The notes beneath the pieces are model-generated. The model saw nothing but the letters and a program-made list of their open reading frames with translations. It made no database searches and was not told where the DNA came from. A program made the translations under genes and the position numbers. Shown one piece after another: positions 5,381 to 62,966 of a stretch of DNA of 64,000 bases; positions within the stretch are counted from its first letter, which is position 1, and each line of letters begins with the position of its first letter. Source of the DNA: Minisyncoccota bacterium (GTDB taxonomy: Bacteria > Patescibacteriota > Minisyncoccia > Phycocordibacterales > GWA1-40-21); assembly GCA_041663045.1 (NCBI GenBank), contig JBAZRH010000001.1, positions 212,403 to 276,402 on the forward strand, written 5' to 3'.

Positions 5381-6917
<1,537 letters not shown>

Positions 6918-6974: not shown

Positions 6975-7003
6975 ATTTTTTCTCTGTCCGTAAGCGAGCG
7001 AGC

Positions 7004-7459
7004 CTATTTGACTGACAAAAGCTCCACTTCAAAAATCAATGTAGAATTTCCAGGTATTGGTCCATAGTCATTTGCACCGTAACCGAATTCTGGCGGAATA
7101 ATCAAAATTCTCTTTCCTCCAACTTTCATACCTTCAATTCCAATATCCCAACCCTTTATAACCATTCCAGATCCAAGTTTAAATGTAAACGGTACTCCCC
7201 TATCTCTTGAACTATCAAATTTCTGTCCGCTGGTAAAAACACCCGTGTAATGCACCGTCACTTCTTTACCGGCAGTCGCAACCGCTCCAATACCGACGAC
7301 AGTGTCACTGAGGTCCACTGTTGGAGTTTTCTTTTCTGTCTGTTTTTGATCAATCACGTTTTGTGTCGAAATTAAATTGTTAATAAGACCTGTACCACCT
7401 ACAAATAACAAGACCAGTACAATAGCTATAGTTATTGCGATATATGTTTTTTTGTCCAT
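7004..7459 (-). CDS. FKBP-type peptidyl-prolyl cis-trans isomerase with an N-terminal membrane anchor
   Basis: 151 aa. N-terminal TM helix, then VHYTGVFTSGQKFDSSRDRGVPFTFKLGSGMVIKGWDIGIEGMKVGGKRILIIPPEFGYG, a canonical FKBP domain. Confidence 0.85.
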   Translation of the reverse strand: MDKKTYIAITIAIVLVLLFVGGTGLINNLISTQNVIDQKQTEKKTPTVDLSDTVVGIGAVATAGKEVTVHYTGVFTSGQKFDSSRDRGVPFTFKLGSGMVIKGWDIGIEGMKVGGKRILIIPPEFGYGANDYGPIPGNSTLIFEVELLSVK

Positions 7460-37759: not shown

Positions 37760-38947
37760 CTATTTAGCCATATTATTAAATACCTTAATTATTTCAGCTA
37801 CTTCTTTTGAACTATTCGTTGCCATAAGTTTGACCCTCAACTCTTTTGCCCCATCAAAACCGGAAACATAGGCTTTGAAATGCTTTTTCATTACATCAAA
37901 TCGCTTGTGGTGAAGCATGGTTTTTTCAAAAAGTTTGGTGTGTTCTAAAAGCGCCTTTAATTTTTGTTCAACAGATATACCAGAATCATCCCGTACAATT
38001 TTAGGGGAATATCTGTTTGTCTTTAAATCAATATCACAGTGTCTTATTGTTTTCTTATTTTCAACTTTATCCTGTCGTGCAAATTTAACGGGACGCTCAA
38101 TTCGACTACCACGATAAGAATCGCGGGTCGAATTGGCGAATAACCACGGATTGCCGAAAATTCCCCTACCGATCATTATTCCATCAAAGCCAGATTCTCT
38201 GGCGAGTTCTCTTCCCTGCTTCAGGGAAATTACATCACCATTGCCTATCAATACCAGCTCCGGCTTTTGCTTCCGCACAAAATCCACAATCTCTTTTGCC
38301 AATTCCCAATGTGCAGGCACATCTGAAAGTTCTTTTCTTGTGCGGAGGTGTATTGTGAGAGCTGAAATATCTTCTTTCAGAATTTCAGTGAGCCACTCTT
38401 TGTATTCTATTTTATTAAAGCCGATTCTTGTCTTCACAGAAACTGGGATTTTGCCCGCACCTTTTATTGCTGAACGTATCACTTCCCTTGCAATCGCCGG
38501 ACTTTTCATCATTGCCGAGCCGGCACCCTGCTTTTCTACTTTTCTGTCTGGGCATCCCATATTTATATCAATGCCGTCAAAGCCGAGTTTGGAAATAAGC
38601 TTGCATGCGATTTCAATATTCTCAGGTTTGCTTCCAAAAATCTGTGCCACTATCGGTTTTTCGCCTTTCGAGAATTTCAAATCATTCAAAAGTCGCTTCC
38701 TACCTTTTTCTGAAGCAAGTCCGTCTGCCGAAACAAATTCAGTCCAAAAGACATCCGGCCCACCTGTGCCCGACACTCCGTGTTTAGGACGCCCAATACC
38801 GTGCTTGCTGTATTTTGCGATTATTTTCCTAAAGGGCGCATCTGTAACATCTGCCATCGGCGCCAAGCAGAAAAATGGTTTCTTTTTCGAAGCGATTTTT
38901 TGCCAAAAATTTTTCATTACTTCCGAGAATAACATTTTCGGTGTCAT
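37760..38947 (-). CDS. tRNA-dihydrouridine synthase (Dus family)
   Basis: 395 aa. FCLAPMADVTDAPFR N-terminus and a TIM-barrel FMN site (catalytic Cys in NMGCP). C-terminal helical extension. Confidence 0.85.
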   Translation of the reverse strand: MTPKMLFSEVMKNFWQKIASKKKPFFCLAPMADVTDAPFRKIIAKYSKHGIGRPKHGVSGTGGPDVFWTEFVSADGLASEKGRKRLLNDLKFSKGEKPIVAQIFGSKPENIEIACKLISKLGFDGIDINMGCPDRKVEKQGAGSAMMKSPAIAREVIRSAIKGAGKIPVSVKTRIGFNKIEYKEWLTEILKEDISALTIHLRTRKELSDVPAHWELAKEIVDFVRKQKPELVLIGNGDVISLKQGRELARESGFDGIMIGRGIFGNPWLFANSTRDSYRGSRIERPVKFARQDKVENKKTIRHCDIDLKTNRYSPKIVRDDSGISVEQKLKALLEHTKLFEKTMLHHKRFDVMKKHFKAYVSGFDGAKELRVKLMATNSSKEVAEIIKVFNNMAK

Positions 38948-61916: not shown

Positions 61917-61988
61917 AAATATAACGGAGAGCGACTATCTATTTGCATTATACACCTTCTATATTACTATGTCAAATAATTTAATTTT

Positions 61989-62022
61989 AAATACCATATC
62001 AGCTATAGCTGATATGGTATTT
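61989..62022. repeat. Perfect 34-bp palindrome in an intergenic spacer
   Basis: aaataccatatcagcta|tagctgatatggtattt is an exact reverse-complement. Lies between the truB stop and the upstream gene start. Confidence 0.8.
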
Positions 62023-62042
62023 AAGTAATTCTGCTATTGAAA

Positions 62043-62966
62043 TTAAATTCTATCCTTACCTATTCTGATTCTCTTGATATTCAGTGCTAAAGCTGGAATA
62101 CCTACTTTCTCCCCTATCGCATTTGCCAAGCTTCGCATATATGTACCACTTGTACAGGAGACTTTTATGGTGATAGTTTGAAAATTATCAAGGACGGTCC
62201 TTGATAAAGCTGATTCCCATGATTTTAAGATTTCTTTTTGGCGGAAATCGCCGGAAACTAGTGCGATAGATTCTTTTACAGATTTTTCAAATTCAGATTT
62301 TGAAATTGAACTTTCCTTTAATAATTCAATGTTTTTGATTTCAACATCTTTTGAGGGGATTTCGTCGGGGTCCAAGTTTCCGCTTTTCGCGTGAGCGAAA
62401 AGCGGAATACCGTTTACGGTCTTTGAAGAAAATGGCGGATATTTTTGAGAAAATCTGCCGACAAAGCTCTTTAATATACCGTCGAGCTTGGCGAGCGAGA
62501 TACTGCCCTTTCCGGAAACTTGCGAGGCTGGCTGAGCCGAGCACGAGGAATTTTTTAGCAAAAAAATATCCGTGTTCCGGAAAGGGCAGTATCGAGCGAG
62601 CCAATTATGTGCGATTCTAAAAGAAGACATTATTGAGCGAACAAGAATCCCTGGATCCCCGCATTCGCGAGGATGACAGACCGGGGAGGAATTAACCAAA
62701 CCCAATACATCAAAACTATCCGTCGCAAAGCCAAAAAGCACAGTTACTTCGTATTCTTTATCAAGCCCTAAATATTTATCTTTATTTTTACATTCTTCAC
62801 CAACAAGCACGAGAAGTATGCCCTCAGCGAGTGGATCAAGACGCCCAGCATAGGTCATCTTGTCATCTTTGTATTCAGGATTCGCCAATTTAAATCTATT
62901 CAAACATTCAAGAGGCGTTTCTCCCCTCTTTTTATATAATTTTAAGACACTTTGTTTTGGTATCAT
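62043..62966 (-). CDS. truB: tRNA pseudouridine synthase TruB with a GC-rich in-frame insertion of about 50 aa
   Basis: YAGRLDPLAEGILLV catalytic motif, KEYEVTVLFGFATDSFD, FVGRFSQKYPPFSSKTVNGIPLFAHAKSG. Extra segment CHPRECGDPGILVRSIMSSFRIAHNWLARYCPFRNTDIFLLKNSSC... between conserved blocks. Confidence 0.8.
   Translation of the reverse strand: MIPKQSVLKLYKKRGETPLECLNRFKLANPEYKDDKMTYAGRLDPLAEGILLVLVGEECKNKDKYLGLDKEYEVTVLFGFATDSFDVLGLVNSSPVCHPRECGDPGILVRSIMSSFRIAHNWLARYCPFRNTDIFLLKNSSCSAQPASQVSGKGSISLAKLDGILKSFVGRFSQKYPPFSSKTVNGIPLFAHAKSGNLDPDEIPSKDVEIKNIELLKESSISKSEFEKSVKESIALVSGDFRQKEILKSWESALSRTVLDNFQTITIKVSCTSGTYMRSLANAIGEKVGIPALALNIKRIRIGKDRI
62497..62593. repeat. Inverted-repeat-flanked GC-rich element inside the truB coding sequence
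   Basis: gatactgccctttccgg (62499-62515) and ccggaaagggcagtatc (62577-62593) form a perfect 17-bp inverted repeat. The centre contains a ttttttagcaaaaaaa mini-palindrome. Confidence 0.7.

Follow-up and report, generated by a model that had tools for sequence, protein, structure and literature searches.

The truB gene contained in a 64,000-nt stretch of the genome of a Minisyncoccota bacterium (GenBank assembly GCA_041663045.1, contig JBAZRH010000001.1, positions 212,403–276,402; this whole stretch is hereafter called the window) encodes a TruB protein in which two conserved blocks are separated by a GC-rich segment carrying an inverted repeat. The question raised by this locus is whether the segment is a part of the enzyme or a piece of foreign DNA that the gene has accommodated, and, if foreign, to what kind of element it belongs. 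The insert clearly belongs to a phylum-wide family of palindromic elements, and it is likely that it represents selfish DNA resembling the Rickettsia palindromic elements (RPEs), tolerated as a surface loop rather than serving as a domain of TruB.

The insert in truB

The product of truB is 100% identical to NCBI protein WC631_01385 from a metagenome-assembled genome (MAG) of Candidatus Paceibacterota, and it matches both Pfam TruB_N (1.6e-23) and solved TruB structures in PDB. The catalytic motif GRLDP (G41–P45) is invariant across the 25 TruB orthologues aligned. The protein lacks a PUA domain.

A preliminary description of the locus had placed an insertion at 62340–62700. The insert exists, but it begins only at 62485 (Table 1), and the region 62340–62484 is ordinary, conserved TruB-coding sequence. 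The insert (~200 nt) is missing from most of the 24 Paceibacterota TruB orthologues, whose usual length is ~250 residues; the absence of the extra segment from most orthologues thus agrees with the description, whereas its size is ~60 rather than ~50 residues. Relative to T. maritima TruB, residues 98–165 of the query correspond to chain residues 93–103, i.e. they replace ~10 residues. The insert is in frame, as had been stated, and free of stop codons. Its GC content is 51%, compared with 36.9% in the rest of truB, so that it is GC-rich within its gene, but this value is not extreme for the window, in which ~40 other 80-nt stretches reach ≥55%. Furthermore, the insert is made of two modules rather than one, A (62652–62675) and B (62485–62605), of which B is the hairpin noted in the preliminary description.

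The window contains exactly two occurrences of the 17-mer GATACTGCCCTTTCCGG, one at 62499–62515 on the plus strand and one, inverted, at 62577–62593 on the minus strand; the chance expectation is 0.05, and two matches were reached in none of 100 shuffled sequences. The perfect 17-bp inverted repeat described earlier is therefore present, and the perfect stem is actually 19 bp long (62499–62517/62575–62593) with a 57-nt spacer, extending to 30 nt at 87% complementarity; the A/T mini-palindrome reported at its centre was also found (62547–62571). A 231-nt region including the stem has a predicted folding energy of −81 kcal/mol (z = −5.2 relative to shuffled sequences). Given that the source is a MAG and that chimeric assembly can create palindromes, a chance palindrome or an assembly artefact was considered, but its probability is negligible: the inverted repeat greatly exceeds what chance would produce, the ORF of the host gene is uninterrupted, and the same architecture is present in ~60 independent assemblies from many projects, as described below.

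Alignment of orthologues and fold prediction had both been proposed in the preliminary description as checks. The insert is not aligned broadly, most orthologues lacking it. In an AlphaFold model that used the aligned orthologues as input (mean predicted local distance difference test score, pLDDT, 77), residues 94–153 score <50 and have almost no secondary structure, and are thus predicted to be disordered, on an otherwise confident TruB fold (pLDDT ~80–96 outside these residues). The protein also contains ~50 residues beyond classical TruB at positions 211–263 (window ~62178–62336), which are conserved in all Paceibacterota orthologues aligned and are predicted as two confident helices. Unlike the palindromic insert, this segment is, judging from its conservation and the model, a genuine lineage-specific domain.

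Inteins are characterized by an N-terminal Cys or Ser, a C-terminal His-Asn plus a nucleophile, and a length of ≥130 residues. An intein was rejected as an explanation for the insert, which is 60 residues long, contains no splicing motifs, and is predicted to be disordered.

Table 1. Coordinates of the truB insert, its components, and related sequences in the window
Feature	Position	Strand	Description	Basis
truB coding sequence	62043–62966	−	307 residues, catalytic domain only, catalytic motif GRLDP intact	Open reading frame (ORF)
Whole non-native insert	62485–62690	−	Loop between ...FDVLG and ...SFVG; encodes ~residues 93–161	
Module A	62652–62675	−	Second, unrelated GC-rich mini-palindrome CATCCTCGCGAATGCGGGGATCCA, translated HPRECGDP	Motif match
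Linker between modules A and B	62606–62651	−	Weak hairpin GATTCT...AGAATC	Predicted fold
Module B	62485–62605	−	Complete copy of the dispersed palindromic element, with a core of subfamily B	Covariance model R1
Direct repeat, 5′ copy	62593–62599	−	TCGCTCG, within semi-conserved outer motif GGCTCGCTCG	Read from sequence
5′ arm (sense of gene)	62575–62593	−	GATACTGCCCTTTCCGGAA, locus-specific	Inverted-repeat search
Conserved 57-nt core (hairpin loop)	62518–62574	−	CACGGATATTTTTTTGCTAAAAAATTCCTCGTGCTCGGCTCAGCCAGCCTCGCAAGT, translated TDIFLLKNSSCSAQPASQ	Same core in four metagenome contigs
Inner A/T-rich mini-hairpin of core	62547–62571	−	GGATATTTTTTTGCTAAAAAATTCC	Predicted fold; helix covaries in family
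3′ arm	62499–62517	−	TTCCGGAAAGGGCAGTATC, perfect complement of 5′ arm	Inverted-repeat search
Direct repeat, 3′ copy	62492–62498	−	TCGCTCG	Read from sequence
tgt insert	5958–6050	+	Probable decayed copy in opposite orientation, in tgt (5381–6685, −)	Inverted repeat
Intergenic fragment	6976–7004	+	14-nt exact core piece TTTTCTCTGTCCGT joined to AAGCGAGCGAGCC, the reverse complement of outer motif GGCTCGCTCG	

A family with a conserved core and covarying arms

Three of the 24 TruB orthologues (P0002, P0006, and P0016, all from Paceibacterota) carry the element in the same loop, whereas the others contain either nothing or different inserts there. The cores of these three copies are near-identical to one another (CACGAAAATTTTTTGCTAAAAATTTTCTCTGTCCGTCGCCGTCGCGnCTCCCAAG) and clearly related to the core in the window truB; each species has entirely different arms, although the two arms of a copy are complementary to each other. 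This distribution of conservation explains the failure of the search probe proposed in the preliminary description, namely the arms of the inverted repeat: the arms are unique in the window, and because they are locus-specific, a search with them is uninformative. The repeated unit is the spacer between them.

The family was then scanned with an invariant 20-mer of the core (TCTCTGTCCGTCGCCGTCGC) in one genome per species. The 20-mer was present in 88 stretches, of which 87 belong to Patescibacteria (~60 genomes) and one is a chance match in a GC-rich Halomonas. The genomes are assigned to Paceibacterota, Nomurabacteria, Taylorbacteria, Minisyncoccia, and MAGs labelled Saccharibacteria, and at least 18 assemblies (counted by accession prefix) contain two or three copies. 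In one locus (L005), the UvrD gene carries two copies, the second of which scores 82.9 bits at 6605–6748, and in another (L089) copies are located 1.2 kb apart in adjacent KsgA-like and UvrD-like genes. A metagenome scan with the core variant of the window itself (TCGTGCTCGGCTCAGCCAGC) returned four true matches (L092, L096, L097, and L100), the window's own contig not being among the matches returned. Their 56-nt core is identical to that of the window truB but their arms are different; one lies in MnmA in the same frame as in truB, one in tgt, and two in non-coding DNA. Because an identical core recurs with other arms, the truB copy can be regarded as a regular member of subfamily B and not as a decayed relic. 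The outer motif containing TCGCTCG also flanks the copies in L096, L058, L017, L056, and L057, suggesting that this sequence either belongs to the element or marks a specific target. Neither core was found in viral contigs.

A covariance model (R1) was built from an alignment of 85 copies from other genomes, with the window left out, and the window was searched with filters off. R1 identified 62485–62605 on the minus strand at 42.8 bits (E = 1.8e-7; model positions 1–120), a score within the range obtained for four other subfamily B copies (31–47 bits), and no other significant match over the whole window; the remaining matches are generic terminator hairpins in which the core is deleted, and were rejected. 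A BLAST search of the window for further copies likewise yielded the truB copy alone. A protein search with the concatenated element peptides gave one match (E = 0.19), the search being too insensitive to count copies in the window's own genome.

The element is ~120 nt long and consists of the ~57-nt core, which is its most conserved part, and a stem of ~17–25 bp, which is its most variable part but remains complementary. The consensus structure of the 85 copies comprises a 16-bp outer stem, a 9-bp inner hairpin, and a conserved loop. Compensatory double changes were observed in 23 of the 27 predicted pairs: both sides have changed in all 16 pairs of the outer stem, and double changes were found in seven of the nine pairs of the inner A/T helix, in which 98.7% of cells are paired. 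Overall, 90.8% of cells are paired, compared with 66.5% after column shuffling and 40–55% when the partners are slid, and the covariation score is 0.588 versus 0.151; the observed values were reached in none of 500 shuffles.

Such very strong covariation, with a conserved loop on a variable stem, is a classic signature of structured RNA, and a functional RNA within the coding sequence, e.g. a cis-regulatory mRNA hairpin, a site for RNase III or other processing, or a small RNA, with the loop as a binding site, would also account for a core that is far more conserved than the host genes, for the several intergenic copies just upstream of start codons or between genes, and for the biased orientation of the copies relative to their host genes (44:10). 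Several observations make this explanation unlikely. Wobble-type mismatches in the outer stem comprise 63 G-U and 69 A-C cells, i.e. neither strand is favoured, and at single gene sites in TsaD (L012/L025), UvrC (L052/L072), and UvrD (L005/L041) the element points one way in one species and the other way in another. With these two observations, a constraint acting on the hairpin as DNA, or on both strands alike, is more plausible than a strand-specific RNA. In addition, no Rfam 15 family matches the element in the window or in eight canonical loci, the host genes are unrelated and without common regulation, decayed derivatives are tolerated, and the 44:10 bias is equally well explained if one reading frame gives a hydrophilic, tolerated peptide.

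Copies in genes, remnants, and a second repeat

Among 91 canonical copies, 54 are located in frame and without a stop codon inside ORFs of ≥150 residues, and ~35 are intergenic. The coding copies use both orientations and four frames. In orientation opposite to the core as written, 43 copies encode LGRSDGDGQRKFSAENFR and one encodes RRRRTEK; in the same orientation, five copies encode HENFLLKIFSVRRRR, which is the frame used in truB, and five encode SPRKFSAENFLCPSPSLLPR. Five of the six frames of the consensus core are free of stop codons, as are three of the six in the subfamily found in the window truB. At least 11 housekeeping gene families are occupied in frame, the Pfam-confirmed hosts being UvrD, RecG, Fmt, TsaD, a PGM/PMM-family phosphomutase, Dus, UvrC, RsmA/KsgA, Tgt, and MnmA.

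These data bear on two further explanations. The first is that the segment is never translated, being removed like an intron or bypassed by the ribosome as in gene 60 or the mitochondrial elements, with the stem joining the two ends. Long stems that bring boundaries together are typical of excised or bypassed segments, and a hairpin of −57 kcal/mol for 121 nt is very stable, but the frame is kept and stop codons are lacking in every one of the 54 coding copies and the four truB copies, which would be needless if the segment were removed, and the stop-containing frame is never used. Since, moreover, the element matches no intron or ribozyme family and shows no take-off/landing codon pair with a stop codon of the kind present at known bypass sites, excision or bypass is very improbable. 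The second is a functional, vertically inherited, lineage-specific insertion domain of TruB, e.g. an additional RNA-binding loop. The four truB genes carry the element in the same loop, orientation, and frame, and the subfamily A peptide contains RRRR, which could bind RNA. However, most close orthologues lack the insert, including P0005, the nearest in the alignment (76%), and the same DNA recurs in intergenic sequence and in the genes of at least 10 unrelated proteins; the insert is also predicted to be disordered, whereas residues 211–263, the real lineage domain, are conserved and confidently folded. The domain explanation is thus already largely refuted, and we assign it hardly any probability; the earlier view of the insert as non-native DNA is upheld by its absence from most close orthologues and by the presence of the same DNA in unrelated genes.

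Several loci contain degraded or partial elements. Among Fmt orthologues, the site may be empty (PEKLDEEFFNKLKAISYKLSIVVAYG) or occupied by a full element (...LDEKEIRDVLRTLGRSDGDGQRKFSAENFRGEQNIADFFLVVAYG), while P0211 retains only the arms and P0167 half of the element, a series that is as expected for the decay of non-essential DNA. In the window, the insert in tgt consists of a 21-nt inverted repeat (95% complementary) with a 51-nt spacer from which the inner A/T hairpin has been lost. It retains a core remnant (CCGTCGC--TCCGCTCCTCCTCAAGG at 5985–6008) that matches the GC half of the core better than any other sequence in the window, scoring 27 compared with a maximum of 24 in 20 shuffles. 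The tgt gene of another Paceibacterota locus (L062) contains a canonical element at exactly the same site. Because of this canonical copy and the core remnant, the tgt insert is probably a decayed relative of the family, but it was not filed as a member, the R1 match being non-significant (13 bits, E about 2). The same two observations lend support to the preliminary description, which had named tgt as a companion case. The intergenic fragment at 6976–7004 is probably a remnant that has undergone an internal deletion. A mechanism recurring in this genome had been proposed from the truB and tgt cases; a dispersed family is shown across the phylum, whereas within the 64-kb window the recurrence comprises one full copy, one probable tgt remnant, and one fragment.

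Dus (37760–38947, minus strand) contains ~45–60 extra residues right after GNPWLF (~37940–38128). The Dus genes of two other Patescibacteria (L009 and L044) have a canonical element at the corresponding site. No convincing palindrome and no match to the model were found in the window Dus insert, which may have arisen from a copy by complete decay or be unrelated to the element.

Module A of the truB insert differs at four of 24 positions from the motif CATTCCCGCGAAAGCGGGAATCCA. It is the sole match of this closeness in the window (128 kb searched), with ~4e-4 such matches expected by chance according to our estimate. A longer form of the motif (GTCATTCCCGCGAAGGCGGGAATCCA) occurs twice in locus L056 (6113 and 1731). 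The peptides VIPAKAGIQ...NLDSRLRGND and HSREGGNPG were found in the TruB orthologues P0077, P0082, P0084, P0090, P0094, P0097, and P0102, and the recurrence of VIPAKAGIQ, LDSRLRGND, and HSREGGNP in these proteins is attributable to the module A motif being read in different frames. From these sequence matches, GTCATTCCCGCGAAGGCGGGAATCCA appears to represent a second repeat family, which different species carry in frame at three distinct loops of TruB.

Two other hairpins were observed at the truB locus. A perfect 13-bp hairpin, TTCCGCTTTTCGC GTGA GCGAAAAGCGGAA, is located at 62378–62407 within conserved coding sequence (PLFAHAKSG). It is kept in the genes encoding P0002, P0006, and P0016, with a compensatory pair of synonymous changes (TTC/GCG to TTT/GCA) in the P0006 and P0016 genes, and may represent a hairpin under selection in mRNA or DNA, or else a palindrome domesticated long ago. 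Directly downstream of truB, a near-perfect AT-rich hairpin, aataccatatcagctatagctgatatggtatt (61977–62032), is probably the terminator of this gene. A weak Rfam match to NrrF at 61968–62022 corresponds to this terminator hairpin and was rejected as spurious, as was a weak R1 match at the same place.

Persistence of the element and comparison with known systems

If the truB insert is indeed selfish palindromic DNA, its persistence may be envisaged as follows. An insertion in a gene would survive when its length keeps the frame and the landing site is a permissive surface loop, and the scarcity of stop codons in the frames of the core would allow the element to persist in genes. In truB, it would be translated as part of a disordered excursion of ~60 residues between two conserved blocks, and TruB carrying the insert presumably stays active. 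The truB loop, which holds module B with the unrelated module A just upstream of it, would be a recurrent landing or tolerated site. The element would then be mobile rather than old and vertically inherited, neutral or slightly harmful rather than useful, and recognized or propagated as a DNA hairpin.

A number of points weigh against this reading. Translation of the element is suggested by the open frame alone. Filled and empty versions of a site, which would indicate mobility, were not found in near-identical genomes; neither classical terminal inverted repeats nor a variable target-site duplication was found, and the 119 ORFs flanking 36 intergenic copies (whole genomes not searched) include no recurrent transposase family. 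The copy number in this genome was counted within the 64-kb window only. Coding copies are often located at orthologous sites common to several species (12 in Fmt and several in UvrD), and because many of them share such sites, the number of independent insertions must be well below 54. Finally, the core is conserved across deep lineages to an extreme degree that exceeds the need of a purely neutral parasite, which hints that it serves a function, be it for the element or the host.

A variant that we consider rather doubtful is that the propagating unit is only the ~57–66-nt core, and that the flanking host DNA is subsequently remodelled into a complementary stem, e.g. by template switching at quasi-palindromes during replication. 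Growth of the stem into flanking sequence is suggested by the Fmt proteins, in which the net gain is 22 residues though the element spans 38 residues, and by two copies in one genome (L018/L033), which have common inner arms but outermost segments of 8–10 bp that are different, yet perfectly complementary. Propagation of the core alone is also hinted at by the perfect arms of many copies despite the deep divergence between copies. The suggested stem growth into local sequence is a lead rather than a result. If this variant were true, the element would be structure-propagating selfish DNA with an ORF-neutral core suited to genomes almost without intergenic space, and a general source of lineage-specific loops in proteins of the candidate phyla radiation (CPR).

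Among known systems, MITEs (miniature transposable elements with inverted repeats; Correia/NEMIS, ERIC, BOX, and RUP) have conserved terminal inverted repeats matching those of a parent insertion sequence (IS) and generate variable target-site duplications (PMC10969869, PMC2229807). Like the element described here, they are non-autonomous hairpin repeats of ~100 nt located between and occasionally inside genes, where in-frame fusions are possible. In our element, however, the inverted arms vary more than any other part, the outer motifs form direct rather than inverted repeats, the flanking TCGCTCG is identical at different loci, and no parent IS or adjoining transposase was seen among the ORFs flanking the 36 intergenic copies. 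The repetitive extragenic palindromes (REPs) and the bacterial interspersed mosaic elements (BIMEs), which are associated with RAYT transposases, are 20–40 bp long, extragenic, headed by GTAG or CGTC, and present in hundreds of copies (PMC3733652, PMC1525189). They share with our element a palindrome thought to be recognized as a hairpin and a structure preserved more than its sequence, but our element is ~120 nt long, often intragenic, and equipped with a conserved loop, and CGTC is found within the subfamily A core, not as a head. Module A (62652–62675) is closer to REPs in size, yet it also lies inside a gene. Structure is likewise conserved over variable sequence in the attC sites of integrons, recombination sites that act as folded single-strand hairpins at cassette boundaries next to an integrase and have conserved outer boxes and a variable centre; the pattern of conservation in our element is the opposite, and it resides inside housekeeping genes.

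RPEs, reportedly described by Ogata et al. (Science, 2000; Genome Research, 2002), are the system to which we liken the element. They are small palindromic repeats, approximately half of whose copies lie in frame in unrelated housekeeping genes in a manner compatible with the protein fold (PMC10969869). Both systems comprise a dispersed palindromic repeat of ~100–150 bp in a reduced genome, with the rest of the copies intergenic, a recurring encoded peptide, and insertions accommodated as surface loops, and the mobilizing enzyme is unidentified in both. They differ in the host phylum (Patescibacteria/CPR versus Alphaproteobacteria), in the conservation here of the core or loop alone, with hypervariable but covarying stem arms, in the use here of four frames and both orientations, sometimes at one gene site, and in copy number (one to three exact-core copies per genome versus 44 in R. 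conorii). By analogy of architecture, our element would work like an RPE; we do not claim that it is one. Our incomplete coverage of the literature on RPE-like elements, MITEs, selfish DNA, or recurrent peptides in CPR, Parcubacteria, or Patescibacteria yielded no description of such an element. The phenomenon is thus known in kind from Rickettsia, but it is unexpected in Patescibacteria, where it involves a differently built, unrelated element.

This comparison has several implications. The element may be the source of some of the insertions, so far unexplained, by which CPR proteins differ from their homologues, and such segments are a warning to annotators and users of structure prediction, in that they are to be regarded as repeats and not as domains. 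The conserved 57-nt core can be used as a probe for the machinery that recognizes the element. Where intergenic space is scarce, selfish repeats may persist in the permissive loops of essential proteins, and the occurrence of such an element in Patescibacteria suggests that in-frame coding palindromes, first presented as peculiar to Rickettsia, may be a recurrent outcome of genome reduction.

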